In this document: positions 14,561-64,000 of the stretch, piece after piece
Position numbering within the stretch: the first letter of the stretch is position 1
Layout: every line of letters begins with the position of its first letter
From: Iphione sp. A-MEVVRFRX5
Taxonomy: Eukaryota
Direction of reading: 5' to 3'
Length of the DNA: 64,000 bases
NCBI GenBank assembly: GCA_976226885.1
Contig: OZ320313.1
Coordinates: 156,364,001-156,428,000 of the forward strand
The notes under the pieces: generated by a model
The model's input: the letters and a program-made list of their open reading frames with translations, nothing else
Told to the model about the DNA's origin: nothing
The model's database searches: none
Made by a program: the position numbers and the translations under genes

Positions 14561-14811
14561 ATAACATCCTTCCACTATACACCTAGATGGATATTTATTA
14601 AAGAAGAATCGATTTTTTCGTAAAGCACAGTGCCCATCCTTTTCTCTGTTCCTATATGAGAAGGTGTGCAAATATATCACAAAGCCAAACCAACACATAC
14701 AGCTTCAGAGGATTTAAACGTATGAACATGTCATTCTAGGGGTGTCTACAGAGACCTCAGTATGGTAAGATGAAATATGCTTTGGAGGTGACTGAACTAT
14801 GGTTAATTGGT

Positions 14812-15259
14812 TGCACTCCTCAAACCCACTATAACTCAGGACTTTACTCCCCAAACTCTTTGTAACTGGGGATTTTACTCCTAAAGCTCACCACAGCTCA
14901 GGATTTTACTCCTTACAGTCACCACAAATCTGGTATTTACTCCTCGAACTCACCACAACTCAGCTTTTACTCCTCAAACTCATTACAAATCTCTCTCCTC
15001 TGTGGTATGTGTTTGTATGTGCATGTATATATTAGGAAATTTACTAGAAGTCAGATTTTTACCCACAAACCCACTACAACTCACGGTTTTACTCCTCAAA
15101 CTGACTACAATGGAGGATTTTATTCCTCAAATTCATCAGCATCAAGTATTTTACTCCTCAATTTCACCACGACTCAGGATTTTACTCCTCAAACGTACTG
15201 GTACTCAGATCTTTATTTTCAAACTCGCCAGAACTTTACTCCTAAATCTCATTACAAAT

Positions 15260-47700: not shown

Positions 47701-48075
47701 CTGTCAATTGATAACCCAGTGTATAAGTAAAGTGCTATTGCTGCGTCTTGAAACTATTCTTTTTTAACAGTACAAGTACCAAATTCGTCAGAATACCAAA
47801 GAATAACGGTTTATTTCCTTTAAATGGAGCATCAAATACGCCAAATGTCGCATTGTGAGTTCTTGTCCGTGGAAAACTGTTGATCACAGAATTCAAAGAC
47901 TGAAACCTGAACACAAAACCATTAAGCAAACGATGTGACCTTTAGTTGTGCCAAGGTTTGAGTACCTGCTGCTGGATATCTCAGCACACCTTTGTGGTCG
48001 TCCCATCAGCTGTGCGATTCTAATTTGGCTCTAATCCTAAGAATGTTGTTTTTCTACCCATCTAGTAATGAATAG

Positions 48076-48336
48076 TGTAGCGTTTCCCATTACGTAATAA
48101 AGACATGACCAAGGTTGTGAACAATGAAGGTTTATTCCAGAGATGTGAACACTACGGCGACTCAGCCTAGACTGACTCCCTCCTCCCTAGCAGCCCCTTA
48201 TATACCCTACCCAGGGGCAGGGGGGGGGTGGTGGGGAGTGCAGCACTCCGCACCCCCGGCGCGTCCTAGTGCAGCACTCCGCATGCAGCACTCAGCACCG
48301 GGGTTGCCTCCTGGTGCCGCACTCCGCAGCACCACA
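48076..48336 (-). repeat. Element 1 3' LTR
   Basis: Appears identical by eye to 56925-57185. On the minus strand: TATATAAG (48204-48197), AATAAA (48136-48131), and four TGC[AC]GCACTC[CA]GCA copies (as read on the plus strand) in U3. Confidence 0.99.
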
Positions 48337-48348
48337 CTGCCCCCTCCC
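48337..48348 (-). other. Polypurine tract GGGAGGGGGCAG
   Basis: Directly abuts the TG of the 3' LTR. Confidence 0.9.
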
Positions 48349-48445
48349 GAAACGAAACTTTGTCCCCAAAGTTCTAACATACTTCAACATCGGAACAGTC
48401 CAACCGTAACCTGGAACAGTCAACAAGGCACAGGTGATCCACAGC

Positions 48446-51163
48446 TCATCGTAGGGACACTGTCCACACCTCCTTCAGGTTGGCGACAACACAGTCGCCG
48501 TCGCGGGACTGGTCCCAGGTGGTCAACCTGCGCATGGCAGTGCCCCTAGTGAGGTTCTCAAACCTCCGTGCGTGCCAGCGCATTAGCTCGGCTGAGCCTA
48601 GCTGATCCGGTCCCCTCGGCCGGAAACGAATACTCTGGTTGAGGGTCAGCTTCACCTGATTTCCCCCCAACGCCTGGACTTCCGATCTCCCTGATGCTCG
48701 TACGATCTCCCAGCCCTCGGGAGGTGCGGACTGGCAAGAGACGAAGCGTACTCCGGTTTCTTCTGGCGAGGGGGGGGAGATGTCCTGGTAAGACCAATAT
48801 TGCGTGGGGGACCGAACGCCCGACGGCAGCCACGGCTGTCCAGCCCCTCGTCCCAGGCCCGGCGACGACAAGGGGAGTACTCGCGCCGTAGGGGATATGG
48901 CTCCTCGCGCCAGGTTCGGAAGGGACGCCCGTCTCTGCAAACGGGGGCCTGGGGGTGTCCAGCGTGGGGGCGCGTCCCCGGAGGGACCGGGCCGTAGGGG
49001 GCGGTCGACGAGGGCCTCCACGTTCACACTGTGCACCCGTAGCGGTCCTCGGGGCGGTGGCACCGCGCCGGCCCCAGGGACAACTGGCGGTGCCAGCTCC
49101 ACGTTGAAATCCCTGGGAGGAGGCTCGTGGTCGGGCGCCACCCCGGGTCCTTCCTCGTCGGTATGGGGTGGCCTTGGAGAGCCGGGGGCCGGCTCGAGTT
49201 GCCCCGTCTCATCCTCACGGTCAACAGGTGGCGGCACTCCCGGTCGCTCTCCAGCTACACCTGGTCGTGGCGGCTCGACGACATTGGTGTCCACGTTCCC
49301 TTCGCCAGTCCCCAGTCCGGCCGTGGTAGACGGGTTCGCTGCGGGGGGTGTGCGTAGAGGGGCCACCGGACCGACTTCCTCCGATGGTGCCGGTGATGCA
49401 CTTCCGGTCCCCTTCTCCTCCCGGTCCGGAGCCCTGGGTGGGGGACCCGCTGGACGTGCCGGCGGACCCGTTGCGGAGGGGCCAAGTGAAGAGGAAGTAG
49501 GCCCGGCCTCCTCCTGGTGGACTGCCAAGGGTCTGCCGACCCCCACCCCTGCGTCGCTGGAGACGTCCTGAGGCTCGGTATCCTCCTCAATCGGCGTGAG
49601 CCCGCGGCCCAGCCCCCCCGGTGGGGTCAACGCGGAAGTACCGCCCTGGTCCGACGGCGAGGTGGTCGGTCGGTCCGCTGGAAGCCTTGGAGGCGGCGGG
49701 GTGGATGTGTCGTCCCGACCTGACGTACTGTGCTGGGAGAGGCTGGCCAGGGTAACTGCGGCCTCCTCCTCTAAGTCTGGAAGTTCATCGGAACTGATGT
49801 CATCGACCCAGAAGGAGGTGCCCAGGGTCTCGGCAAACACTCTCCTTATGGGGCTGATGTCAAGCGCATCGCCCTTCTTGGTGGAAGACCCTGGTGTCGA
49901 GGGGGAGGGCGCTGCCGTATCTCCTCCGGGGGTTATCTCGCCTTCCATGGGGCGGGTCTCGCTCCCCGGTCGCTTCCGGGGGAGGGGAGGGGAGTCCTCC
50001 GGCGAATCTGAGATGACCACCGGTTGGGACGGCGAGGCCTCCTTCGACCAGCCTGGTCCAAGGCGGCGGTCTAGCTCTTCCTCTGTGTCAGTGGCCGACC
50101 CACGACCCAGCTTGAGCGGCGGCTGCCCTGGCCGCGACGACTTAGATGGGGGAGCCTTCCCCTTTCCTTTTCCGTGCGACTTCGTCGTGGCGGGTCCCTT
50201 GCCCTTACTTGCCCCGGCACGGCCTTGATGACGTGTTGCTGCTCGTCCTCTGCCCGGCGAATATACGGCATAGGGGGGTTGGGCCGTCGGTCCAGGGGAG
50301 GGGTGCGCCGGGGTGGCCTGTTCCTCCTCGTCTTCTTCGACCCTCGACTGGGGGGGGGTGAACAGCTGCCGCCCTCCAGACCCCTGGTCAGCTGGTAGGT
50401 TGATCCCCTTTGGGGTTGGGACCAGGGGGAGGGCCCGCGCGCACGTGGTCGGACGTTCCTTAGGGGCCCTGGCGTAGGTCCGTGGCCGCATCCTCTCTGG
50501 CGGTGAGGCAGACCCTCCGCTGGTTCCGGCCCGGCTGCCTGGCGATGGTCCGGCCTCGGAGGTTGATCCATGCGCCGGCGTCTCGGACTGAGAATCCGCC
50601 GACCCGGCTGACGCGGAAGTAGGCGGCCCCTTGCTGCCCGCGGAGCTGCTGGGGGTTGCTGGGGCAGAGCGGTCGGTGCCGAGTCGGCGACGTGCCCGGC
50701 GGGCTGGTGGGCGCGATGGTCGAGGGGGTGCTTCCTCTCCCGACTCGGCGTCCTCGTCCGAGGACTCAACGACCTCTGCCCTGAGATCCTTGGTTCTTGC
50801 GGTGGCCTCGCGACGGCGCCGCCTGGCCAGCTCTGTCAGCTTGTCTGCAGGGCACTCGATGGCGACCCCACGGGTGGGGTTGAACCCCGAGAATCGCACA
50901 TAACCGATGTCCACTGTCTGTGTCATCTGGAGGGATCGGTGTACCCCCAGAAGGTGCCGTTTCCAGTCCGTTCGTCTGCGGAAGGCGGTGTTCTTGCAGG
51001 TTTGGACGGGGCAAATCCAGCCGAACCCCTTAGGGCTGTGCACTTGCTCCATATGGCGTCGTAAATTTTGCCTCTGCTGGAAACCAGTATCGCACAGATG
51101 ACATGCGAATGGAGCTGTGGCAAGGGGTACTTCCCCGGAGGCAGATGGGGTCTGGTCGGTCAT
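48446..51163 (-). CDS. ORF3-like module (905 aa from MTDQT): two C2H2 fingers, ~700-aa Pro/Ser/Gly/Ala-rich region, ~120-aa ordered C-terminus; in frame with pol
   Basis: FACHLCDTGFQQRQNLRRHMEQVH and CPVQTCKNTAFRRRTDWKRHLLGVH at 51109-50939. The ATG is preceded by the acceptor ttgcttgtttgtcccctgcAG|GA. Confidence 0.8.
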   Translation of the reverse strand: MTDQTPSASGEVPLATAPFACHLCDTGFQQRQNLRRHMEQVHSPKGFGWICPVQTCKNTAFRRRTDWKRHLLGVHRSLQMTQTVDIGYVRFSGFNPTRGVAIECPADKLTELARRRRREATARTKDLRAEVVESSDEDAESGEEAPPRPSRPPARRARRRLGTDRSAPATPSSSAGSKGPPTSASAGSADSQSETPAHGSTSEAGPSPGSRAGTSGGSASPPERMRPRTYARAPKERPTTCARALPLVPTPKGINLPADQGSGGRQLFTPPQSRVEEDEEEQATPAHPSPGPTAQPPYAVYSPGRGRAATRHQGRAGASKGKGPATTKSHGKGKGKAPPSKSSRPGQPPLKLGRGSATDTEEELDRRLGPGWSKEASPSQPVVISDSPEDSPPLPRKRPGSETRPMEGEITPGGDTAAPSPSTPGSSTKKGDALDISPIRRVFAETLGTSFWVDDISSDELPDLEEEAAVTLASLSQHSTSGRDDTSTPPPPRLPADRPTTSPSDQGGTSALTPPGGLGRGLTPIEEDTEPQDVSSDAGVGVGRPLAVHQEEAGPTSSSLGPSATGPPARPAGPPPRAPDREEKGTGSASPAPSEEVGPVAPLRTPPAANPSTTAGLGTGEGNVDTNVVEPPRPGVAGERPGVPPPVDREDETGQLEPAPGSPRPPHTDEEGPGVAPDHEPPPRDFNVELAPPVVPGAGAVPPPRGPLRVHSVNVEALVDRPLRPGPSGDAPPRWTPPGPRLQRRASLPNLARGAISPTARVLPLSSPGLGRGAGQPWLPSGVRSPTQYWSYQDISPPSPEETGVRFVSCQSAPPEGWEIVRASGRSEVQALGGNQVKLTLNQSIRFRPRGPDQLGSAELMRWHARRFENLTRGTAMRRLTTWDQSRDGDCVVANLKEVWTVSLR

Positions 51164-54100
51164 TCCTGCAGGGGACAAACAAGCAACAGTATAAGTCGGG
51201 GCTTCATACAAAGCAGGTGCGGCATGAACGATTGAACTCCGCAGCGGCGTAGCAAGTGCCGCTGCGGCTTTAAGGTGGCGCTGCGGCGGGTCACTACCAG
51301 AACTCCGCTGCACTTTTTTACCATGTACTAAATGCGGCGAATTATCACTCAACTGTCGCTGTTGCGGCCCCCTATCGTGCGGCGAATCAGAACTCCGCTG
51401 CACTCGTGGCGAACTATCGCTAATACTCCGCTGCCGATGTTTACTTGCTGCTGCGGCGTGCGATCCCCGATTATCGCCCAATTGCCAAGGCGGCCTAGAG
51501 GTGAAATCATGCCTTACCTCCGCTGTAAGTTTTCCTGCGCAACGTAGGGGTGGTGCTGCGACTAATCTTGTTGTTTTCGCTCTTGCCGATTCGTGCCAGA
51601 TGGAGTTGACGATGAAACTTGGTGTAACTGCTGCGGCGGCCTTTTCACGCTGCGCACTCCATGGGTTGTCAGGGACGCTGGGCCGAGCGTCTCGGTCGAC
51701 CGCGGCGCCCCCTATCATGAGTGCGGAGTTCCCCCACGTGTTGCGGAGTTTTGACTTTGACTCCACAGCGGCGGTTGCCCCTACTCTGGCCTCCGCAGCG
51801 GCCGATTTTGACTTCTCCGTGGCCACTGTTGCGACGTCCTCGGTTATCGCCGGCTTGAGGCGATCTGCATGCACAACCTTCCTTCGCGCACCTCTCCCTA
51901 TTCGATAGACAACTGCGGACAGTCTCTCCTCCACCTGCCACGGACCTTCCCACCAGCTCTGGAACTTGGGAGATACGCCCTTTTTTTTTAGTGGGGTGAA
52001 AAGCCACACTTTCTGTCCCACCACGTACTCCTGGGGGCGCACCTTCTGGTTATACCAGTCCTGCCACAACTCCGCTGCCTTATTCAGCTTGCAAGCGACC
52101 CACTGGTGGGCTTCCCGGACTTCTCCTTCCACCTGCTGCGCATACTCGCCTCTTTCCATGGTTGGTCCTTCAGGGTACCCGTAACGGAGCTCGGCTGGGG
52201 TAGCAACCTCCCGATGCAGGGTCAGCCAGTTAGGGGACACGCCCGTGGTGCTGTGGGGGGTGGCCCGATATGTAGCCATGACGAAGGGGAGGGCCAAGTC
52301 CCAGTCGGCCTGCCTCTCTTCTCCCAGGGTGGCTAGCATGCTGGCGAGCGTCCTATTGAAACGCTCCACCACTCCGTCGGCTTGGGGGTGGTATGGTGTG
52401 GTCCTGGATTTCTCGATCCCCAGCAATCGTAGCACCTCCGCGAAGAGTTCGGCTTCAAAATTCCGCCCCTGGTCGGAGTGCAAGGCTCTAGGAGGCCCGA
52501 AACAGCACACCACTTCCCTGACAATCACTTCGGCGGTTGCCCGAGCTGTGATTTCCGCCAGTGGGAACGCTTCTGTCCATTTAGAAAAGTGGTCCGCCAC
52601 TACTAGAATGTAATGGTGTCCCCGCTCCGTGCGCGGGAGTGGCCCTAGGACGTCGGCTGCTACCAGTTCCCAAGGCTCGCTGACTTTCCGGTACTGTAGC
52701 GGTGCCCTCTTGTTGCGGTATGGCCCCTTCCTACGCTGGCACGCCTGACAAGCTTGTGTCCAGCGCAGGACGTCCCGCCGGAGTCCAGGCCAGAACCACT
52801 TAGTCCTAAGAGCGGCTCCGGTCTTCTCCGCTCCCAGGTGGCCACTCAACACCCCTTCATGAGCCTCTTGCCAAACCTGTTTCCGTAGACTCCTCGGCAC
52901 GTATGCCTGATACACCAGTCGCGAGGGCTCTTCCTGCCAACACCGCATCAACACCCCACGCCGGAGGCTTAACCGTCTCGCCTCAGCGCGCAGCTGGCGC
53001 TCTTCCCAGGACAACCCGGGTTCGAGTCCGGGGATTTCTCTACCTTCCTCGAGTGCATCTATGATGGCGGCTATGGGCTCCTCCTCCCGCTGGGCGTCCC
53101 GCAGCTGCGGTCGATCTCCAGTTGGGTCCACGGTCACCATGGCCGTGAGCTCCCGCACCGGTTCTTCCCCCTCCTCGTTACGGTGGCACTGTTTACAGCG
53201 CTGGCGAGATAGCCCGTCTGCATTGCCATGTTTCTTTCCGGGTCGGTGGACGATTAGCAGGTCATAGCAGAATATTTCCTCCAGCCACCGCGCCAGCTGC
53301 CCCTGGGGCTCACGGAAATTGCACAGCCAGCGCAAGGAGTCGTGGTCAGTGCGTATCTCCACAGTGTGCCCTCCCACATAACAGCGGAACTTCCGTAATG
53401 CGAACACCACTGCCAACAATTCTCGACGAGTGACACAATAGTTCTTTTCAGGGCGCGTGAGGGTCCGGCTGGCGTACGCCAACACCCTCTCCTGTCCCTC
53501 TTGCTCCTGGGACAGCACCGCACCGATGCCCATATCCGACGCGTCCGTGTCGATCAAGAGTCGTCCTTCTGGTTTCGGGAACCCCAGGATGGGTGCCGTC
53601 ACCAGCCGTTCCTTCAACTCCTCGAAGGCCAATTGGCACTGCTCTGACCACGCGAACTCGGCGTGCCGATCGGCCAGTGCGTGTAGTGGTGCTGCTATCC
53701 TCGCGAAGCCCTCCACGAAATTTCGGTAATACGAGCAGAGGCCCAGGAACCCGCGCAGCTCCTCTTGGCAACGAGGCACAGCCCATTCCGCCACCGCCGC
53801 TATCTTGGCCGGGTCTACTCCGACCCCCGCGGCGGACACCCGGTGCCCGAGGTAAGCCACCTCCCGTCGGAACAGCTGGCACTTCGAAGCTTTCACATGC
53901 AACCCGGCCTGCCGGAGCCGCTGGAACACCATTCCTAGGCGCTGGCACATCTGCTGCACCGAGTTACCCAGCACGATAACGTCGTCGAGGTAGACGAGAC
54001 ACTCCATGCCGACAAGCCCTCGCAACACTGACTCCATCAACCTTTCGAATGTGGACGGGGCATTGCACAGTCCAAAAGGCATAACTCTAAACTGGTAAAG

Positions 54101-55531
54101 CCCTCTGGGTGTGCACACTGCGGTCTTCTCTGCATCGCGTGGATCCATGCGTACCTGCCAGTATCCACTGGCCAAATCCAAAGCTGAGAAAAACCGGCTT
54201 CCTTGCAAGGCGTCAAGGGTGTCGTCGATTCTGGGGATAGGATAAGCGTCCTTCTTCGTCACCGCATTCAACCGTCGGTAATCCACGCAGAACCTGGTCC
54301 CCCCATCCTTCTTCCTCACTAGGACCAGGGGCGAGGCCCACGGGCTAGTAGAGGGCTCTAGGACTCCGCGTTCTACCATGGAATCTACCTCCTGCTCGAG
54401 CTCTGCCCGCTTCTGTGGAGGGAGACGCCGCACCCGCTGACGAATGGGCGGGTGCCCCTGGGTGTTTATCCGGTGTTGCACATCAGGAGCACAACCGAGG
54501 GGCCCACTGGGGGTTTGGAACACCCCCTTGTACTCTTCCAGCAAAACACGTACCATCCGCCGTTCCTCTGTGGAGAGGTCGTCTGGAAGGCTCTCCAGCA
54601 GTTGTCCCACCGCCTCCGACTGCTCACCCTCAACGGTTGAGTTGGCTCCAACCTGAATAGGGTCCACCTCCTCCACCGGATGGGCCCGCCCCACGTGGGT
54701 TCCGCCGTGGATGTACGCCTCTTGTGCACCCGGGTTCCATACTGGCACCAGCAGCTTCCGCTCAGTGGGACACACCACTGCCTGTGCTACCCGGAGACCT
54801 GAGCATTCTTCGAACCATAGATTACCCTCGGTCAGCACCCCCGCGGGTTCTCCGAGTGTCGGTGCCCAGGCGGCCGTCACCCAGCCTAACTGTCCCGCTG
54901 CGATGCGGTGGTCCCCTCGGGCCGCCAGCAATACGGCGCCGTCCCCCACAGGGGCAGCCAGAGTTACCTGCGCCCGCACGGTATCCACTGTCGCTTCCCA
55001 GGCGTCCAGCCAGTCAAGTCCCAGGATCGCCAGCACCTCCATGTCGACCACTCGAGCCCTGACGGGTACCCATGTGTCCCCGAAGTGTACTTGACTGGCG
55101 ACCGTCCCTCTCACAAGTAACGGGGCCCCATCCACGCCGAACACCCGGGCGTCTATGGGGCCCAAGGCCACACCCTGCAGATTGTCGAAGACTCGGCTTG
55201 AGAGTAGTGAGGCTGATGCTCCCGTGTCCACCAGCCAGTCAAAAGTGCAGCCACCCATCCTTCCGGACAGTAGCAACCCACTGCACCCTTGACGTCGGCG
55301 TCCCTGAAGGACCACACCGCCCGTGGTGGCCCCTGCTAGCGCTCGCAGGTGTTCAGGCGGTGGCGAACCGCTGCGGGCTGGGACCTCTACTCTTGGTGAC
55401 TCTACCGCCCGCCCCTCTAGGCTCGGGCGGGCGGTCCCCCGTTTCCCGGCTCCGCGGTGGGCGCGGCGGCGGCATTGGCGCTCGGGGGTGCAGTACCAGC
55501 CTCCGCCGCCAACCGTGCTGGACACTCCCAC
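48446..55531 (-). CDS. pol: Pol polyprotein (protease, RT, RNase H, integrase) with a C-terminal extension of over 1100 aa
   Basis: VDTGAS protease (~55220); YLDD (53981-53992); DTDASD RNase H (~53540); H-X6-H...CQAC and D..D..E integrase; EGPW...HADRLKP end (~51851); then open to the stop at 48446. Confidence 0.98.
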   Translation of the reverse strand: MGVSSTVGGGGWYCTPERQCRRRAHRGAGKRGTARPSLEGRAVESPRVEVPARSGSPPPEHLRALAGATTGGVVLQGRRRQGCSGLLLSGRMGGCTFDWLVDTGASASLLSSRVFDNLQGVALGPIDARVFGVDGAPLLVRGTVASQVHFGDTWVPVRARVVDMEVLAILGLDWLDAWEATVDTVRAQVTLAAPVGDGAVLLAARGDHRIAAGQLGWVTAAWAPTLGEPAGVLTEGNLWFEECSGLRVAQAVVCPTERKLLVPVWNPGAQEAYIHGGTHVGRAHPVEEVDPIQVGANSTVEGEQSEAVGQLLESLPDDLSTEERRMVRVLLEEYKGVFQTPSGPLGCAPDVQHRINTQGHPPIRQRVRRLPPQKRAELEQEVDSMVERGVLEPSTSPWASPLVLVRKKDGGTRFCVDYRRLNAVTKKDAYPIPRIDDTLDALQGSRFFSALDLASGYWQVRMDPRDAEKTAVCTPRGLYQFRVMPFGLCNAPSTFERLMESVLRGLVGMECLVYLDDVIVLGNSVQQMCQRLGMVFQRLRQAGLHVKASKCQLFRREVAYLGHRVSAAGVGVDPAKIAAVAEWAVPRCQEELRGFLGLCSYYRNFVEGFARIAAPLHALADRHAEFAWSEQCQLAFEELKERLVTAPILGFPKPEGRLLIDTDASDMGIGAVLSQEQEGQERVLAYASRTLTRPEKNYCVTRRELLAVVFALRKFRCYVGGHTVEIRTDHDSLRWLCNFREPQGQLARWLEEIFCYDLLIVHRPGKKHGNADGLSRQRCKQCHRNEEGEEPVRELTAMVTVDPTGDRPQLRDAQREEEPIAAIIDALEEGREIPGLEPGLSWEERQLRAEARRLSLRRGVLMRCWQEEPSRLVYQAYVPRSLRKQVWQEAHEGVLSGHLGAEKTGAALRTKWFWPGLRRDVLRWTQACQACQRRKGPYRNKRAPLQYRKVSEPWELVAADVLGPLPRTERGHHYILVVADHFSKWTEAFPLAEITARATAEVIVREVVCCFGPPRALHSDQGRNFEAELFAEVLRLLGIEKSRTTPYHPQADGVVERFNRTLASMLATLGEERQADWDLALPFVMATYRATPHSTTGVSPNWLTLHREVATPAELRYGYPEGPTMERGEYAQQVEGEVREAHQWVACKLNKAAELWQDWYNQKVRPQEYVVGQKVWLFTPLKKKGVSPKFQSWWEGPWQVEERLSAVVYRIGRGARRKVVHADRLKPAITEDVATVATEKSKSAAAEARVGATAAVESKSKLRNTWGNSALMIGGAAVDRDARPSVPDNPWSAQREKAAAAVTPSFIVNSIWHESARAKTTRLVAAPPLRCAGKLTAEVRHDFTSRPPWQLGDNRGSHAAAASKHRQRSISDSSPRVQRSSDSPHDRGPQQRQLSDNSPHLVHGKKVQRSSGSDPPQRHLKAAAALATPLRSSIVHAAPALYEAPTYTVACLSPAGMTDQTPSASGEVPLATAPFACHLCDTGFQQRQNLRRHMEQVHSPKGFGWICPVQTCKNTAFRRRTDWKRHLLGVHRSLQMTQTVDIGYVRFSGFNPTRGVAIECPADKLTELARRRRREATARTKDLRAEVVESSDEDAESGEEAPPRPSRPPARRARRRLGTDRSAPATPSSSAGSKGPPTSASAGSADSQSETPAHGSTSEAGPSPGSRAGTSGGSASPPERMRPRTYARAPKERPTTCARALPLVPTPKGINLPADQGSGGRQLFTPPQSRVEEDEEEQATPAHPSPGPTAQPPYAVYSPGRGRAATRHQGRAGASKGKGPATTKSHGKGKGKAPPSKSSRPGQPPLKLGRGSATDTEEELDRRLGPGWSKEASPSQPVVISDSPEDSPPLPRKRPGSETRPMEGEITPGGDTAAPSPSTPGSSTKKGDALDISPIRRVFAETLGTSFWVDDISSDELPDLEEEAAVTLASLSQHSTSGRDDTSTPPPPRLPADRPTTSPSDQGGTSALTPPGGLGRGLTPIEEDTEPQDVSSDAGVGVGRPLAVHQEEAGPTSSSLGPSATGPPARPAGPPPRAPDREEKGTGSASPAPSEEVGPVAPLRTPPAANPSTTAGLGTGEGNVDTNVVEPPRPGVAGERPGVPPPVDREDETGQLEPAPGSPRPPHTDEEGPGVAPDHEPPPRDFNVELAPPVVPGAGAVPPPRGPLRVHSVNVEALVDRPLRPGPSGDAPPRWTPPGPRLQRRASLPNLARGAISPTARVLPLSSPGLGRGAGQPWLPSGVRSPTQYWSYQDISPPSPEETGVRFVSCQSAPPEGWEIVRASGRSEVQALGGNQVKLTLNQSIRFRPRGPDQLGSAELMRWHARRFENLTRGTAMRRLTTWDQSRDGDCVVANLKEVWTVSLR
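55404..55447 (-). promoter_or_regulatory. -1 ribosomal frameshift signal: G GGA AAC, 5-nt spacer, 11-bp hairpin
   Basis: Heptamer at 55447-55441 is in the gag frame, and -1 puts it in the pol frame (GKRGTARP). Stem ACCGCCCGCCC/GGGCGGGCGGT with a 10-nt loop. The same heptamer is used by PEG10. Confidence 0.9.
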
Positions 55532-56829
55532 TTGAAATGTCCCTGTTCATGGCAGTAGAAACAGGCTCCTTCTGAGGTTCGGCGACGGTTCCGGCGACCA
55601 GCCGCGGCCGGGGGCTGTTCTACTAGCTTGAGAAGCAACTGCTCCACGCACTCCCATGCGGCTGGAGCCGGTGCCGGTGCGGAGCGACTAGCGGCCACAG
55701 ACTCCCCTTCCTCCGCGCGCACGGCGTGGACCCTAGTGGCTGACCCTGACCCGGAACGCTCCTTCTCCGCACGGTGGAAGGATTCTGCCAGCAACGCCTC
55801 CAACACCGCGGATTGAAACGAGCGGGCCTTAGCCTGGACCACCCAGCGCCGGCTCCGTTCCTCTCTCAGAGCCGACACGAAGGCATCCCGGCACATGCGG
55901 TCCAGCCAGGGTCCCTCGGCCTCCGGGTAGGCTTGTCGTACCAAACGTTTGACGTCTTCAGCTAGATTCTGAGCATCTTCATCCTTCCCCTGCCGCCGCT
56001 GTTTGAGCTCTTGCTCATAAAAGGTGGCACGGTCGGCCGATTGGAAGCGATTCCTCAACGCCTCCACAATTCGATCATAAGCGCCCTCGGCTGCGACATC
56101 AATTCCGGCGGTGCGGAGAGCTGACTGTGCCGACTTGCGCAGGCAGACACTCAGTTGCAGCGCTTGTTCCACCCGGTCCCACCGGTTGGCTTGGGCCACG
56201 AGACCAAAGTGGTGCAAGTACTCGGCGAGGGGCACGGACCCATCAAATGCCTCCGGCTTTACATGGAACTTTCGCGCTGGGGTGACAGATGTAGGGGCTG
56301 CCGCTGACCGCAGCGCCTCTTGGAGGCCGGATACCAGGCTTCGCACCAGCTGGCCGCGTTCATCATCTGCCTCGGCTCGAATGGAACTGGGGAGCGTCGT
56401 CGCTGAGCGGGGGGTACTGCCGGCACTACTGGATGGTCCTGTCCCCGTCTGTGGCCCGTCCGGGTGGGGTGGCGGCGTCGCAGGTGGTGGGGTAACGTTC
56501 CGTGGCACACCCTCCTGCCCTGCAGAGGGGGGCGCGGCGGCGCCCCGCGGCTCGGTGGACACTGGTGAAGCTCCCCTGGGGGTAGACTGTGGCGTATCCT
56601 TAGGCCGTGCGGGGTGCGGCTGCGGCTGTGCGGGGTGCGGCTGCGGCTGCGGCTGTGCGGGGTGCGGCTGCGGCTGTGCGGGGTGCAGCTGCGGCTGCGG
56701 CTGCGGCTGTGCGGGGTGCGGCTGCGGCTGTGCGGGGTGCGGCTGCGGCTGCGGAGTGCGGCCCAGTTGGACTTCGTCGTCTGAGCTGGCAGGCTCCTCA
56801 CTGTCCCACTGATCGGAGTCTCCGGACAC
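55417..56829 (-). CDS. gag: Gag (capsid-like domain plus CCHC zinc knuckle); listed start is GTG
   Basis: KPEAFDG...YLHHF...W motif, CFYCHEQGHFKWEC knuckle, N-terminal PQPHPAQ repeats. Confidence 0.95.
   Translation of the reverse strand: MSGDSDQWDSEEPASSDDEVQLGRTPQPQPHPAQPQPHPAQPQPQPQLHPAQPQPHPAQPQPQPHPAQPQPHPARPKDTPQSTPRGASPVSTEPRGAAAPPSAGQEGVPRNVTPPPATPPPHPDGPQTGTGPSSSAGSTPRSATTLPSSIRAEADDERGQLVRSLVSGLQEALRSAAAPTSVTPARKFHVKPEAFDGSVPLAEYLHHFGLVAQANRWDRVEQALQLSVCLRKSAQSALRTAGIDVAAEGAYDRIVEALRNRFQSADRATFYEQELKQRRQGKDEDAQNLAEDVKRLVRQAYPEAEGPWLDRMCRDAFVSALREERSRRWVVQAKARSFQSAVLEALLAESFHRAEKERSGSGSATRVHAVRAEEGESVAASRSAPAPAPAAWECVEQLLLKLVEQPPAAAGRRNRRRTSEGACFYCHEQGHFKWECPARLAAEAGTAPPSANAAAAPTAEPGNGGPPARA
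56606..56762. repeat. Frame-preserving GC-rich tandem repeat in gag (21-nt unit plus 6-nt subunits)
   Basis: tgtgcggggtgcggc(tgcggc)n; encodes PQPHPAQ in the gag frame and SRSRTPH in the overlapping frame. Confidence 0.95.
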
Positions 56830-56905
56830 ATCAGGCGCCCCTGCCGGCCATCACCCGCGTCCCCTTCCTGTTGGCTGACCTCGGCCATGTCCAGCGGCGG
56901 GCGAG

Positions 56906-56923
56906 ATCCCACCGCTGCCACCA
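56906..56923 (-). other. Primer-binding site TGGTGGCAGCGGTGGGAT (tRNA-Leu)
   Basis: 1 nt from the 5' LTR; complementary to the eukaryotic tRNA-Leu(AAG/TAG) 3' end ATCCCACCGCTGCCA-CCA. Confidence 0.9.
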
Positions 56924-56924
56924 A

Positions 56925-57185
56925 TGTAGCGTTTCCCATTACGTAATAAAGACATGACCAAGGTTGTGAACAATGAAGGTTTATTCCAGAGATGTGAACA
57001 CTACGGCGACTCAGCCTAGACTGACTCCCTCCTCCCTAGCAGCCCCTTATATACCCTACCCAGGGGCAGGGGGGGGGTGGTGGGGAGTGCAGCACTCCGC
57101 ACCCCCGGCGCGTCCTAGTGCAGCACTCCGCATGCAGCACTCAGCACCGGGGTTGCCTCCTGGTGCCGCACTCCGCAGCACCACA
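56925..57185 (-). repeat. Element 1 5' LTR
   Basis: Direct repeat of 48076-48336. Confidence 0.99.
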
Positions 57186-59689
57186 ATAGTACAGAACCTG
57201 ACCCTACTTTCCCTTCAGTAGGTTCCCCAGGCCATAGTACTATTTGGCTAGTTGATAAATTTTTAAATAAATTAGAGACTTCTTGCAAAATGTAAGCGTC
57301 AGAATGTTTGCTATTATCTCATCTCTTCACAGAGTTTATATGTACTGGTATACTACATTTCTTTGTAAATGTGTGTTGGAATAAAACATTTTATCTTTAC
57401 AAGATTCTACTTGTGCTATAACAATACTCAAACATTATTGAAAAGGTAGCCCTAAATACATCACATTTACGAGTATTTCATCAGTATATTGTTAAGATCG
57501 TGTCACGATTATTATATGATCCTCTCTGCTTAAGAAAAAAAATTGATTTTCTCTATGAATCATTATGAAATCTTTGTATGTAAGGGGAGAGAAATGAACA
57601 AATGATTATCTCTGGAAATGCATACGCAGGGCCTCATGTACAGCTGTATGTTTTTCATAATCGTTGTCTGACGTTTTGCTTTTTTTCTAAGCTTGCGTTT
57701 CTTTGGATTGTAATACCATTCTAAATTTTAAAACCAGGTCAGTTCTTGTTTTTACAGTGCTGCACTTGATGTGTTGTACACATAGTTTTGCAGCTAGATT
57801 CATATATTGTCAAGTAAGCGGGTGAAAGGCATTTGGACCTTTCACACATATTGTTTTATTTATCTGCAGCGTTTCCTTTTGTGGACTGACTCAAACATAA
57901 TAGCGCACAGTAGCTTCATGTTCTGCTGTTTCCCCACAGGCTTTGTTACTGTGTCCCTTATCTAGAGCTTTCGACTCGTCCTTTTCTTTCTATTTTGTCT
58001 GTATCTGTTGTATTGTATTTATGAGAATACTTTTTTCTGTTATCAATTTTTGTTCTCGCGTTATTCTCTTGCTTCTAAAACTTCTTCATGTGAGCTGCGA
58101 CTTTAAGCTTAATCTCCTCTTCTCTTTTCTAAAAATCTATCCAATGGATATTTCACCGAAAACAATAAAATGTTTTGCTTGGAATACAATATGGCAGGCT
58201 TTGCTCCGATCAAAATGAATAGTTTCATGACGAAGTTGGGGGGAAAACATAAAATATTCTCTTGTAACGGTGTTTTCAATTGCTCCGTGATTGGTCTTCA
58301 AGTTCACATTTATAGATCTTTTACTGTTCGTGATTAGGTTCCAGTTATGAATGCTACTGTTGAGCAATTCAAAAATGTAAAATGTTTATATCTCGTTTTT
58401 AACAATAAACATAAGGGAACAAAGATAATGATCACTGTTGTTGTAACAAAAATTGTTTTGGAAACGATATAACTCTCCTCTAGGTGTCATTCATAATGCA
58501 TGTACAAGGATTTCGACGCAGAGGTCTGATGATTCAGCAATTACGTCGTCTGAAATGGAGAATACACAGTAGCTACGATTATGTCACCTGTAGGAGTAAC
58601 AATACTTTATAGTACCCTGCAGTGAATGTTTGCAGCAAGCAAGATGTGGAACACACAGACTCGAATGCATGAGCCACTTGTACCTAATGATGAACAGCTT
58701 TGCCGACGCACTTGAAGGAAGGCCCTTCAAACTACTTGAGGTACAGATGTAATCATATATACATAACTGTATGTTTGGAAACGCTAGATCGTTTAGGAAC
58801 ATTATAGAGGCCGAAGCAGCAAAATGATAGCTGCAATCGTGAAGTTAACATGTGTTTGACTGGCTTCAGTGAAGCTGCCGACGTTCTCTGCAAAACTGAA
58901 AGGGAGCACCATGCATACATACATTAAGAATGTCTGAGATTTTTTGTATATATATCAGGCCAGTATTTTGCCAGTGGGCATGTCTACAGTCAAAAGGAGA
59001 TTTCTGCTATTGGAGATTGTAGAAGAGCCTGTCCGTCCATACTGAATAATATTTTTTTTTTCGCAATAGTGACGAGTCCAAAGAACAGATCTTAAAATTT
59101 CCGTACCGTCGTCTGTTTGGGGCCTCGTGATACGTCTATTGGCTCTACAATGTTTGCCACAGCGTAACCAGCTTCAATGTAGGAGATGGACACTCTAACA
59201 TCCTCCAAAAAGGATCAACACAGAGTTTCCCATTTGCCAGAGGTAGCAGCCTCCTGTACAGTATATATTGGGTCCTAAATAATGCATATACTTCTAATTC
59301 ATACTGAGAACACTGTGACTTCATCGACTATATTACGGCCTATAAGGATCCCATGGAGATGAGTTATTGAGGTATCCAGAGTGCCATTCATAGAACTGAC
59401 ACATATACATGGTTAATGAATCAGTTAAGGTCACCACGTTAAGCAAGACCATGTCCAACATTTATTCGGGAGAATATTTAGCTCAGCTTATTTAGAGTAA
59501 TGTGCAACTGGTTGTCGGGATATATTCTGACGAATTGAGGTATTTCTATTCACATTCCCCTGGATTGGGAGATTGGGGAAGCATGGGCTCTCAGAATGTA
59601 GTCTATATGTCGTCAGTTGAATTAAAGTTAAATCCCTAGATAAGTGTTTTCTTTTTCTTAGGCTGGTATAATCCCATATACCATGGTAT

Positions 59690-60124
59690 TGTAACGTGAC
59701 TAACGTAGAGAGAAATGACAAGTCAACGGACCGAGCAAAAATAATCTTGAGAAAAAGTAGAATATAAGTTTCACTCCAATATACACTAATTCGTTGTGCA
59801 TGGAATGGTCTCTCTCGTATGTGCAAAGAGAAAGGGTCTGTTTATTCCAGAAAACATGGGTTTATATATGACAGTGTTACATAAGAGTTGCTAAAAATAG
59901 GATGTCTAGACACCTGCATATGCGCAGCAAATAAACAGTCCGCGAAGTACCCCAACTACGCAGCACCACAATCCGTGAGATACCTCTACTACGCAATACC
60001 TCTATTGGTCCGGAAGTCGTCACGGATCGCACCCTATCCCGGATCGCGGATTCCGTTGCGGACTATTCTCACGGACCGACCTTCTCTCTAGCACTATACA
60101 CTCTTATGACATGCCTACGTTACA
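59690..60124 (-). repeat. Element 2 3' LTR (435 bp)
   Basis: Terminal inverted repeat TGTAACGT...ACGTTACA. On the minus strand: CCAAT (60008-60004), TATATAAA (59868-59861), AATAAA (59846-59841). Confidence 0.85.
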
Positions 60125-60138
60125 TTCTCCCCTTCTTT
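60125..60138 (-). other. Polypurine tract AAAGAAGGGGAGAA
   Basis: Immediately precedes TGTAAC of the LTR. Confidence 0.85.
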
Positions 60139-60868
60139 AAGAGGGAAACTTATTCGCTTTTTACTGAAATATCTTAAATTATGAGTATTACTTTTTATCT
60201 TATTCTCTATATAAATGATTTTTCGGGTACGAGATGTACTTCTCGTCTAAAAAAGTTTTTCTTTGGACTATTCGAAGTCCTTACGGATTATCTATAATCT
60301 TATCTTTCTTTCTGTTTCGATTACTGGAAAGGTGAAACAAGATTCTATAGATAAAATTCGATATACTTTATTCTTTCTCCTTAAGGGAGTTAAAATATAT
60401 TTTTCTTTTCTTTTGAACACATGGCATCTCAACATACATCAATACAATCTTCACGGATCATGTCAAGAAAATAAAAGATATGGAAACGGATCGACCTTTC
60501 ACGAACTCGTTACTTAGTGGTCTGGTAAAACTGAAATTCGAAATAATGTCTTTTTGTATCATCACAGTTCGTCTTTTACCTTGAAAAAGGCATTCATAAA
60601 TAGTAATATCAAAAATATGCGAGCAATATTCATAGTAAAATCATCATGCGCTTCCGGTTTAGTTCTTTTTCGCGCGGAAAGTCATTTCCGGTTCAGTTCT
60701 TGCGCTACTGTCACGTTGTTGGACTATACTTTTTGGGACGATAAATTATGGATTAAGATCTCTGAAAAGGAATTACAAACAGCATTTGGCATTCACAAAT
60801 AATCAAGGACGGCATTAGGCATGAATGGACTAGAAATTATCACTACTTTAGTCCTTCTCAACTGGATT

Positions 60869-62422
60869 TCACTCGCGGGGCGCCCAAGTGCCCCACGTAT
60901 GCGTGTCGAGGACGGGGTGCGTCTCCTCCCGGATCCTCGCCTGCAACGTGTTGTCTTGCCGTCGTCTGGTGTCTCGAGCAAGGACCAGCTGACCCTCTAT
61001 GTTCGTGGGCGACATCCCTTGAAACGCAGCTTGGACTTGAAGAGTGGAGATCTGGTCGACAGTAATGTTGTGCCTCTGGAACTCAGAATTGTCGCGCCAG
61101 AATTCAGGGTTGGAGGGCTTTCTTGCACCGGGCAGTATCAGGTAGGGCCGGTCCCGCAACGGACCGAACGGATCGCCAGGTGCCAGCACTCCATCCTTTA
61201 TGGCCTCCATCGTTGCTGCCGACAGAGACACCAGATACTTTTGCTCAGGTGTGAGCACGTCCCAGTTGACTGGCGGCCATGTGATGTCGACCCTCAGAGG
61301 TACCGGATTCTGAGGAGCCGTCCTGGCCGTTCCACTAAATGGGTATACCGTCCCATCAGCTACTTCAGTCAGCCACCGGTTGAAAGCCGAACCGGACTCG
61401 TTGTCTGGTCGAGGTCGCTCTGGTGGTGGAATCGCCTTCTGTCCCGTCTTTTCTTTCTTCTTGCCCTTGCTTGCTATCACCTTGCCGCCTACGGATTTCC
61501 TCGCAGTGTTCCTCGGTGGTTGCGGCTGCTGAGGAGGCTGGAACTGCACGTCCTCCTCAATCTGTTTGTCCCGTCTGCGTAGCATCCGTTTCCCGCTGGC
61601 TTGATCTTGCTGCTCCAGTCTCTGCTCGTCAGAACTGGTAGTCTGCTCGACATGATCGTCCTCTGTAGCCGTTCCCGTCTCGTCTCGATCTTGCTTTTTC
61701 CCAGCCTCGATCCCCTCTTCCAAGATACCAGAAGAGATCTCGACTAGAGTTTTAGGAGCGTCCGCAATCAGCTTCTCCACTTCCTCGTCCATGGATGGGG
61801 TAGTGCTTATCATGCTGATATCACTAATACCGCTAATGTTCAAATGTTCAGGCAAATCCGTCACACACTCTTCTGTCGGCTTTTGAAGTTTCTTGACCGG
61901 CAGATCAATCGATTCCTCTGGTAATCGACGTTTCTTGGGTGGGAGTGTGGGTTCTGGGGTGACTTCAGTGGAACTCGGCCGTGACGGTTCCTCAGCCTTG
62001 CTCCCGGACGACCCCGGATCACCAGCTACTTCAGGGGATACCATCACTGCACGCCCTTTCAGTGAGACGATCTCCCCTCCTCGCTGTCTCCAAGCACGGA
62101 CCAGGTTCCGCGCTTCGATGGCTGGCTCAGACTCGCTGTCAAAATCATCCGGAATGTCCCAGCGAAAGTTGTTAAGCGCGAAGAGGTGGTGAAACTTCTT
62201 CGCGAGGAAGTAATTCTGGCTTGCATGCCGGCTTCGTACATGATCCGTCCAGGATTTTAACTCGTGAGCGCACTTCTTGCCTGGACACCACGGACAGATC
62301 ATCTTCAGTAATCGTCCACTCTTAGTCATCCCGTGCACTTTAGCTTGATGCTTGTTAAGGGCGCTCTGCCCTTTTACTGTGAGTTGACACTGATCACATG
62401 TGAGGAGCGGAGGATTTGCCAT
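60869..62422 (-). CDS. 517-aa tandem C2H2 zinc-finger protein (ORF3-like): two fingers, acidic/basic disordered middle, ordered C-terminal domain
   Basis: CDQC-x12-H-x4-H and CPWC-x14-H-x4-H at 62398-62225; ATG start; basic patches (PPKKRR, KGKKKEK) that could act as NLS. Confidence 0.85.
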   Translation of the reverse strand: MANPPLLTCDQCQLTVKGQSALNKHQAKVHGMTKSGRLLKMICPWCPGKKCAHELKSWTDHVRSRHASQNYFLAKKFHHLFALNNFRWDIPDDFDSESEPAIEARNLVRAWRQRGGEIVSLKGRAVMVSPEVAGDPGSSGSKAEEPSRPSSTEVTPEPTLPPKKRRLPEESIDLPVKKLQKPTEECVTDLPEHLNISGISDISMISTTPSMDEEVEKLIADAPKTLVEISSGILEEGIEAGKKQDRDETGTATEDDHVEQTTSSDEQRLEQQDQASGKRMLRRRDKQIEEDVQFQPPQQPQPPRNTARKSVGGKVIASKGKKKEKTGQKAIPPPERPRPDNESGSAFNRWLTEVADGTVYPFSGTARTAPQNPVPLRVDITWPPVNWDVLTPEQKYLVSLSAATMEAIKDGVLAPGDPFGPLRDRPYLILPGARKPSNPEFWRDNSEFQRHNITVDQISTLQVQAAFQGMSPTNIEGQLVLARDTRRRQDNTLQARIREETHPVLDTHTWGTWAPRE

Positions 62423-62644
62423 CTTGTCTGCTTGCCTGTCTTCGAAGAACAGACTGAGACACCGAGGATGACGAAATAATATACTGTGCCGTGACGTATG
62501 CCGGGACGGATCACGCGAGATGGTCCCGGCGCGGGCAATTCAAACTTTTGCCGCGGCGCCCCCCATGCCGGGTAACATTATGCAACTTCAGGTAACACCC
62601 TTATCGTGTCAAGTTTCATTGCACATTTCGGATCCCAGAATTCA

Positions 62645-62652
62645 TATAAAAG
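62645..62652 (+). promoter_or_regulatory. TATA box TATAAAAG of the antisense gene
   Basis: Consensus match ~150 nt upstream of the GTGAGT donor at 62799. Confidence 0.55.
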
Positions 62653-62796
62653 GGTCCGTATTCAATTCTTCGCCATATCTCCTCGTTTTGCTGCCAAAGG
62701 AACTGTTGCCGCTGCCTTTGCAGTCTTCAAAGTTTACTTGTATTTCTTCTCGCGGACACGCCCATCTCCACGACGGACCGCGCCAGCTACCTTAGG

Positions 62797-63825
62797 ATGT
62801 GAGTATGGTTTTTCTTCTCGTTTCCTATTTCTTTTTCAGGTTTTTATATATGAGTGATACCTGTTCATTTTATCCTGTAATTTCTTCTTCAAATTTAGAC
62901 TTATTTCCGTCCGTTTTTTTTTTTTTGTAGGGCTTCTCCTCTTCGAAGCATTATTGCTACCCTGACAGACTCAGGTATCATAGTCTGCTATAGGGGTCCC
63001 ACTTTACAGATGCATCGTCTATTGGGCCCAGAAATCCAAGTGAACTGGGTGGATGCCGGAATGTCCATTTCAGCACGAACACACAGATCAGGTGTTCCAG
63101 ATCGGAGTCCACCCCTCACGTTCACGATTCCTGAGATGACAGTCCGTCCCATTCGACGCGAGGGTGCCTTGATGGTTACAGTAGTGGGAAGGCGAGGTTT
63201 ACCTGAGGCCAGGCAGACGTATCTTCTGGCTCCAGAAGATATTGTGCTCGAGGGGAGGGTATATACCCTCTCTCTCCACTGTTGCCTGCTGCCGCCTATT
63301 CATGTCATTGACCACAACAACAATACTCCACCTCCTTCTCCCAACGAGAATGAGGCTGTAGCTGCTAATGCAGGAGTGGTTTCAGCAGTTCCACCCCCTC
63401 GGAGAATTCAACTCCACGACAACGGATCCTTTATCATATGGGTTCCGACCATGTATGATAATCTGGGGAGGGAGATGTTGTCGCTGCCCCCTCCTAATGA
63501 AAATTCCGTTTTCACTATTCTTCATCCGGCGGACCCTCAGGCTCAGCCAGGGGCCCCAGGGGAGGATGATATTGTTAATATGGACCTAATGTCTCCACAA
63601 GACTGCTTCGACAGGGTTCATCCGGACGGACCAGAAGCATACAATGCCCTTCTTACTCTGGCCAATGCGCTGCCACCGTCACCCTCAGCTGTTCTGGACG
63701 CATCTCTAGAGACGATTCCTGAGGTTGAATTCCACGGTCCGGCGCCAACCGTCACCATAGATCCTGAAGACCCACTTGAGGCTGTGGAGTCTTCAGTTCC
63801 ATCGTCTACTGGCTTGACAAGGTAG
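62797..63825 (+). CDS. Spliced antisense gene of unknown function, join(62797..62798,62931..63825), 298 aa
   Basis: Donor AT|GTGAGT, 132-nt intron, T-run acceptor ttttttttgtAG|G. Splicing gives aggATGG. The frame is open from 62932 into the 271-aa ORF 63010-63825. Confidence 0.7.
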
Positions 63826-64000
63826 AATTCTGCAGAGGGTGATCAGACCTCTTTTCTTTTCTGCTTTATCAAATTCTTCATCCAACGTGGTAACGTTTCA
63901 CCTCTATATTCAAAAATTCGATTCCTGTGCACTAATACCTTCTGTCCGGATTTAGTCTTCTGTAATATATGTCTTCCTAGATCCAATTGTTTAACATGTA

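Follow-up and report, generated by a model that had tools for sequence, protein, structure and literature searches.

A C2H2 zinc-finger ORF fused in frame to pol in a Ty3/Gypsy clade, with a predicted intron in the linker and a possible role in self-regulation

Our analysis concerns a stretch of 64,000 nucleotides (nt) from the 1.18 Gb assembly of Iphione sp. A-MEVVRFRX5 (GCA_976226885.1, contig OZ320313.1, positions 156,364,001 to 156,428,000; hereafter the window, from whose first letter all coordinates are counted). Its minus strand carries a 9110-nt long terminal repeat (LTR) retrotransposon (48076-57185; all of its parts named below are on this strand) in which a third open reading frame (ORF3), encoding a protein with two C2H2 zinc fingers, continues the pol frame without a stop. 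The element is a member of the Ty3/Gypsy group. It is bounded by identical (100%) TG...CA LTRs of 261 nt (5' LTR, 56925-57185; 3' LTR, 48076-48336) and by a 4-bp target-site duplication, CTAT (57186-57189 and 48072-48075). It has a primer-binding site (56906-56923), which we take to match the 3' end of tRNA-Leu, and a polypurine tract (48337-48348), and Pfam matches place protease (PR), reverse transcriptase (RT), RNase H (RH) and integrase (IN) in that order after gag. The 5' LTR contains a TATA box (57053), an AATAAA signal (56985) and, in its U3 part, four TGCGG sites (57177, 57170, 57132 and 57101). The gag gene (55417-56955) starts at an ATG within U5, reads through the primer-binding site and has a CCHC knuckle close to its end, where the slippery heptamer GGGAAAC (55441-55447), followed by a GC hairpin, would shift translation into the -1 frame used by Pol; this layout is kept in 11/11 representatives. 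The pol region proper (51851-55546) ends with an integrase that has a C-terminal p58-type domain. In the window copy gag is interrupted by an in-frame stop (56851-56853), which marks this copy as young but probably not autonomous.

Structure and conservation of the Pol-ORF3 fusion

A single stop-free frame of 2366 amino acids (aa) runs from pol through an open linker (51164-51850) into ORF3 (48446-51163), spanning 48446-55546 in all. This bears out the first-pass annotation of the window, which had described a 905-aa module in frame after a Gypsy pol, with the integrase ending at HADRLKP without a stop and a 229-codon linker leading to MTDQT at 51163. The interval that it gave, 48446-51850, is correct for what it encloses and covers the linker and ORF3, not pol. 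Its estimate of about 2800 aa for the frameshifted product also agrees with the length that we obtained for Gag-Pol-ORF3, which would be about 2830 aa via the slippery site and hairpin.

The openness of the linker is not expected by chance: none of 3000 dinucleotide shuffles was stop-free (they average 7.3 stops), and the two other frames of the linker contain 10 and 17 stops. Whether it stays open in other copies had been named as a check, and among 38 closely related stretches, 37 of them scorable, the linker is open and in frame in 27. These open linkers have 17 different lengths, every one a multiple of 3. The break points of the 10 broken linkers are scattered and 9 of these copies have pol stops as well; conversely, the linker is open in 18 of the 19 copies whose upstream pol is stop-free. 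When the genome was searched with the finger region, 150 of 2820 candidates were scored, and 46 of these lie in stop-free frames of at least 2100 aa. The 28 distant elements retrieved, with 74-87% identity in RT and 41-60% in the finger region, carry the fusion, and as they were picked for long open frames they demonstrate its presence rather than its frequency. Read-through specific to one copy is ruled out by the open linkers of the close copies and of the distant families. An RT tree groups the 11 fused representatives on a single branch (support 100/99). Judged from these comparisons of sequence, the fusion is a clade-wide trait and is maintained by selection.

The ratios of nonsynonymous to synonymous substitution (dN/dS) in 13 pairs of copies show where constraint lies. 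The fingers have values of 0.00-0.12, the C-terminal domain 0.00-0.09 and the middle of ORF3 0.20-0.25; the two ends of ORF3, at 0.12 or less, are as constrained as RT. Values for the linker are 0.35-0.79 in 12 pairs and 0.15 in one near-identical pair. Within the linker a peptide island, (V/I)VN(S/A)xxH (51593-51613), shows third-position wobble in 12/12 of the close copies listed, a sign that translation probably runs through the linker. The island is similar to the VHAV junction in the element's own Gag and to Ty3-type protease sites, making it a candidate site of proteolytic release. Two variants of the fused architecture were also observed: in a basal family (L140/L141 and L160/L161) the fusion is kept, the linker is at its shortest, the C-terminal domain is divergent and the 3' untranslated region (UTR) is about 680 nt long, and one copy (L049; G000:C15, near 50.38 Mb) has internal tandem duplications of portions of ORF3.

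The N-terminal part of ORF3 is predicted to form one module (50762-51115; mean predicted local distance difference test, pLDDT, 91) composed of two C2H2 fingers, a beta hairpin and a long basic helix. Both fingers are of the HX4H type, as had been proposed, and lie at 51038-51103 (finger 1) and 50939-51013 (finger 2). All eight zinc ligands are invariant across 22 aligned rows and beta-beta-alpha-type fingers are predicted; Pfam zf-C2H2 matches finger 1 with an E-value of 4e-4, under the curated cut-off. The fingers are joined by a SPKGFGW-type linker as against the canonical TGEKP type. Fold matches of the module are weak (best Z 3.9), the best 150 hits of a finger profile search were only poly-zinc-finger proteins, and a homologue search with ORF3 residues 1-130 gave none. 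The middle (48794-50761) is of low complexity, rich in Pro, Gly, Ser and Ala with acidic and basic patches, a composition that would be typical of a transcription factor. The protein ends in a conserved alpha/beta domain (48449-48793), predicted with a pLDDT of 87 in another natural copy; the window copy has a 10-residue deletion here, the residues being present in the other 20 aligned rows. Its best fold match is a phage tail-completion protein (Z 8.4; root-mean-square deviation, rmsd, 3.4 Å over 101 residues; Foldseek E above 0.001), which we treat as reflecting a common alpha/beta arrangement in the predicted model. Sequence searches found neither a Pfam family nor a sequence relative or solved structure for this domain, and its profile had no match among longer proteins. 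In the Atlas the domain had no usable match, and the fingers reached only generic C2H2 clusters (<0.9). Pfam gave no env match for ORF3, which has at most 15 hydrophobic residues per 50 (a count made without a dedicated transmembrane predictor), and no chromo match in the window's Pol protein (P0001) at E<=0.1; the element is neither env-bearing nor a chromovirus.

A predicted intron, a UTR signature and repeats shared with the LTR

We scored splice sites with splice matrices. The acceptor 2 nt upstream of the ORF3 ATG, noted in the first-pass annotation, came out on top of 705 AG dinucleotides. The best-scoring donor between the primer-binding site and the fingers is GAG|GTAAGG at 51517, inside the linker, and together the two sites delimit a predicted intron of 352 nt (51166-51517; GAG|GTAAGG ... 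CCCCTGCAG|G) with a phase-0 donor and a phase-1 acceptor. The homologous linker donor ranks first among about 300-370 GT sites in 15/18 copies and among the top three in 18/18. A survey of 71 stretches, from which 16 with broken or undefined linkers were excluded, returned this phase pair (an intron of 3n+1 nt) as the best one in 51 of 55 copies; the exceptions are one mutated acceptor, one equal-scoring other site and two basal copies. Acceptors of the distant families lie 250-485 nt upstream of the fingers, and branch-point-like motifs are present in several families. On these grounds we think it very probable that the linker intron is spliced. An exact search with one junction pattern, which covers the window's subfamily only, found 0 intron-less copies.

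The donor that had been proposed earlier lies elsewhere. The first-pass annotation envisaged an env-like splice from 56879, close to the start of gag, to the ORF3 acceptor, giving a product MAEE*. This donor and its product are rejected: the GT is kept in only 18/38 copies, the site ranks outside the top-scoring donors, and the ATG that precedes it (56888) is out of frame with gag, whose true ATG is at 56955. Of the suggested dual expression, the fusion and a predicted free protein are backed by conservation across copies and families, and the gag-proximal donor falls away in favour of the conserved one inside the linker.

The predicted mature RNA has the look of a short mRNA with a start of its own. 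We compared 12 hand-picked, mutually related representatives; in each of them the ATG met first downstream of the acceptor belongs to the ORF3 frame. The 100 nt upstream of the donor (1200 nt over the 12) contain 0 ATG as against 7.4-13.6 expected, and exon 2 (1602 nt in total) contains 0 out-of-frame ATG as against 6.0-12.9 expected, while the introns of the same representatives contain 42. We found neither a conserved strong donor near the 5' end nor a conserved acceptor further upstream, and in one family (4 copies) the sole TATA box of the element body stands 187-211 nt upstream of the donor. In 8/8 close-group representatives a GGCG(C/T)C motif (51704-51709) stands 189-192 nt upstream of the donor. 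The lack of such a 5' donor and the single-family TATA box favour an internal start, and we regard it as fairly probable that the linker contains one and would serve as promoter and 5' UTR.

The linker also shares a repeat motif with the LTR. The U3 regions consist of short, family-specific repeats around a TGCGG core, and this pentamer is enriched in U3 in 7/9 families, in the linker in 7/9 and in pol in 0/9 (p<0.05, values that the relatedness of the families renders optimistic). The window's linker has 12 TGCGG sites counting both strands, and GCGGAG occurs in it 8 times against 1.0 in synonymous shuffles. Beyond the core, 6- and 7-mers derived from a family's U3 are most enriched in the linker of that same family (label permutation p=0.0006); the same test on pol gave p=0.65. 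In finger 2 the helix positions -1, 3 and 6 are kept as R, D and R, with one damaged copy differing at position 1, and the C2H2 recognition code reads this set as GCG. A lineage marked by ELEGMYE, in which finger 1 is without its usual contact residues, shows no TGCGG enrichment in U3 or linker. It is a tentative proposal, a little short of even odds in our view, that the fingers bind TGCGG-type repeats. Elements L168-L172 and L175 form a lineage with an RT near that of the window group, a finger 1 that is without the usual contact residues, a longer LTR and TGCA-type U3 repeats; the 3' module and the LTR may have been exchanged or have diverged rapidly here.

Gag and the neighbouring repeats

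Several other features were seen in the element and around it. The gag start is placed inside U5 past the poly(A) signal, and its frame crosses the LTR end and the primer-binding site (MSxLR(N/S)G...IGGSGG; 56925-56955); the in-frame Met was seen in 66/66 of the fused-clade copies listed. Ty1 has a comparable layout. Within gag (56588-56764) there are Pro/Gln/His tandem repeats with units of 12-27 nt whose copy number varies among elements, and an Arg/Ser-rich frame of 258 codons (56259-57035) overlaps gag and is open in several close copies too.

A second Gypsy element (L184, L185) occupies 59690-64000 and continues beyond the window. It has identical LTRs of 435 nt and an RT 63% identical to that of the first. 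Its pol ends at a stop near 63845 and is followed by an antisense 308-aa ORF (62899-63825, plus strand) and by a separate two-finger ORF with its ATG at 62422 on the minus strand, TATA-like boxes lying between the divergent ORFs. The finger pair is weakly similar to that of ORF3 (hhalign probability 48%), and the C-terminus is unrelated. Further away, 14810-15199 holds a tandem array of a 31-nt unit, of which 8 copies were found.

A possible autoregulatory circuit and its alternatives

The sequences themselves show a conserved fusion, a donor/acceptor pair, exon parts free of ATG and repeats that recur in LTR and linker. From these we infer the following circuit. An internal promoter in the linker would transcribe a short RNA, and removal of the 5'-UTR intron (51166-51517) would yield an mRNA for a free ORF3 zinc-finger protein. 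This protein would bind the TGCGG-type repeats common to LTR and linker and regulate the element's own two promoters, by activation rather than repression. The Pol fusion would most likely load a few copies of ORF3 into the virus-like particle, from which the element's protease might release them. To this reading as a whole we assign a probability of roughly 0.45.

A number of observations weigh against it. On the side of the motif, TGCGG was picked after inspection of U3; the U3-word test on pol reached p=0.045 at k=7; and in the neighbouring element with the free finger ORF it is pol, and not the sequence upstream of that ORF's ATG, that is enriched in U3 words, which means that such enrichment is not unique to linkers. 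On the side of the fingers, the predicted pair is a bad fit to the canonical arrangement of tandem fingers on DNA (Foldseek rmsd about 8 Å), and for finger 1 the recognition code predicts A in the middle of the triplet, where most of the distant families have C (GCA, GCT). The joint loss of finger-1 residues and motif is a single event, and the ELEGMYE lineage retains the finger 2 residues yet has TGCA-type repeats. As regards expression, an ATG stands 145 nt upstream of the donor in the window copy, out-of-frame ATGs in exon 2 occur in single copies, the linker survey did not find the conserved intron in the basal family (L140/L141), and a strict protease-site-like pattern matches the linker in 12/22 copies.

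One alternative is that the fingers act mainly while tethered to integrase, gripping the element's own cDNA or host chromatin in intasome assembly, nuclear import or target choice, with the free form secondary. In its favour, the linker is kept open and is weakly constrained as protein; many families have a TGCGG-like site close to the U3 end (9-20 nt from the LTR end), and a separate public Gypsy clade, with 5/120 proteins, has fingers after integrase. Steering of insertion by an integrase-tethered reader of DNA or chromatin was a function put forward in the first-pass annotation. We surveyed the insertion sites of 55 elements with 34 kb of flanks and saw an ordinary preference: target duplications matched in 41/49, with a 4-bp (A/G/C)TA(T) site in AT-rich surroundings. 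TGCGG is rarer in these flanks (0.56/kb) than in positions 1-48000 of the window (0.94/kb) and lies at no fixed distance from the insertion, and sequence-directed targeting via this motif is rejected. Tethering would also leave the UTR signature and the clustering of the motif in the linker unexplained. We consider it unlikely to be the main role.

Equally improbable in our estimate is a reading of the repeats by host factors, with ORF3 doing accessory work of another kind, for instance binding RNA or proteins, counteracting silencing or repressing the element by feedback. GC-rich repeats are frequent in U3, the finger pair is predicted to be non-canonical with a partial fit to the recognition code, and the C-terminal domain has no assigned function, all of which would suit such a protein. 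Against this stand the invariant R/D/R contacts of finger 2 and the loss of finger-1 residues together with the motif in one lineage.

Somewhat less likely still is that there is no internal promoter and that the intron is an alternatively retained intron of the LTR-driven RNA. The unspliced form would give the fusion, and the spliced form a short integrase, through a frame shift to a nearby stop, plus ORF3, translated after reinitiation or after another splice upstream. In favour of this are the 3n+1 length in 51/55 copies and, for the close group, a shifted frame that mostly terminates on the ORF3 ATG (ATGA, TGATG, TAATG) and a weak acceptor 17-20 nt upstream of the donor. In the distant families, however, the stop falls 5-39 or 138 codons past the junction, away from the ATG, and stop-start reinitiation is rejected as a general mechanism. 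Moreover, there is no conserved 5' donor, the junction-pattern search found no intron-less copy in the window's subfamily, and a local start accounts better for the depletion of ATG and for the TATA box.

With regard to known systems, ORF3 of errantiviruses is env. A study of bdelloid rotifers describes Ty3/Gypsy (Metaviridae) ORF3s of the GDSL and DEDDy types (PMC5408684). Our element shares with ORF3-bearing Ty3/Gypsy elements the LTRs, primer-binding site, polypurine tract, gag, -1 frameshift, PR-RT-RH-IN order and a post-pol ORF with an acceptor before its ATG; it differs in that ORF3 encodes zinc fingers and lies in the pol frame, and in that its donor is found a short way upstream, within the linker, and not towards the 5' end of the element. 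In the Gypsy-type Oikopleura elements Tor3b/4b an unspliced env mRNA starts at an internal promoter located in pol or behind it (PMC4402516). An internal promoter for ORF3 is likewise predicted here, but its mRNA would lose a 5'-UTR intron and would encode zinc fingers, and the ORF is continuous with Pol. Among the best 120 of 616 public Pol relatives, which are 40-46% identical in integrase, five from other hosts (P0164, P0166, P0167, P0182 and P0190) have C2HC+C2H2 tails after integrase, in frame and with an internal Met right before the fingers, as in our element. Unlike it, they belong to a separate RT clade, have shorter tails and are unmatched by the profiles built here; they do establish that integrase-finger fusions are not unique to this genome. 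The public Pol proteins also include one with a PHD domain (P0265) and three with a chromodomain. Chromoviruses carry a chromodomain past the integrase C-terminal region in one frame, and the present element resembles them in having an additional domain 3' of integrase in the same frame; it differs in lacking a chromodomain, in the size of the module (about 900 aa), which has an ATG and a predicted intron to itself, and in showing no bias in its target sites.

The element most likely works, by analogy, like the circuit of Tas and the internal promoter of foamy viruses, though without kinship, and Tas is not known to be a Pol fusion or a C2H2 protein. Tas is reported to be the product of a 3' accessory gene with an internal promoter and to bind and activate both the LTR and that promoter (PMC13220597, PMC4929722, PMC8670036). 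This circuit of accessory gene, internal promoter and binding with activation was demonstrated there and is proposed here; foamy viruses belong to another group, the Retroviridae, and the likeness is one of function and does not imply homology. We found no description of the present architecture in the literature covered, to which Repbase Reports, subscription journals and supplements, any of which may hold an annotation, did not belong. No C2H2 or zinc-finger ORF is mentioned in the parts concerned of PMC6431247, PMC3670739, PMC8556966, PMC5408684 and PMC4402516.

If the self-regulatory reading holds, a Gypsy clade would possess its own sequence-specific factor, co-varying with the LTR repeats over the many young families that this genome holds. 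The usual view is that LTR retrotransposons depend on host transcription factors, self-encoded DNA-binding regulators being a mark of complex retroviruses. It is conceivable, at odds clearly below even, that this clade independently evolved a circuit like that of complex retroviruses, in which a spliced C2H2 factor acts on family-specific repeats and a particle-carried activator serves new copies, and that related modules elsewhere point to a widespread invertebrate strategy. Such a clade would be a natural model of how transposons regulate themselves and of how fingers and sites co-evolve, and would bear on the exchange of parts between transposons and animal zinc-finger genes. Within the element itself, a single stretch of 0.7 kb appears to double as protein linker, promoter, UTR and intron.

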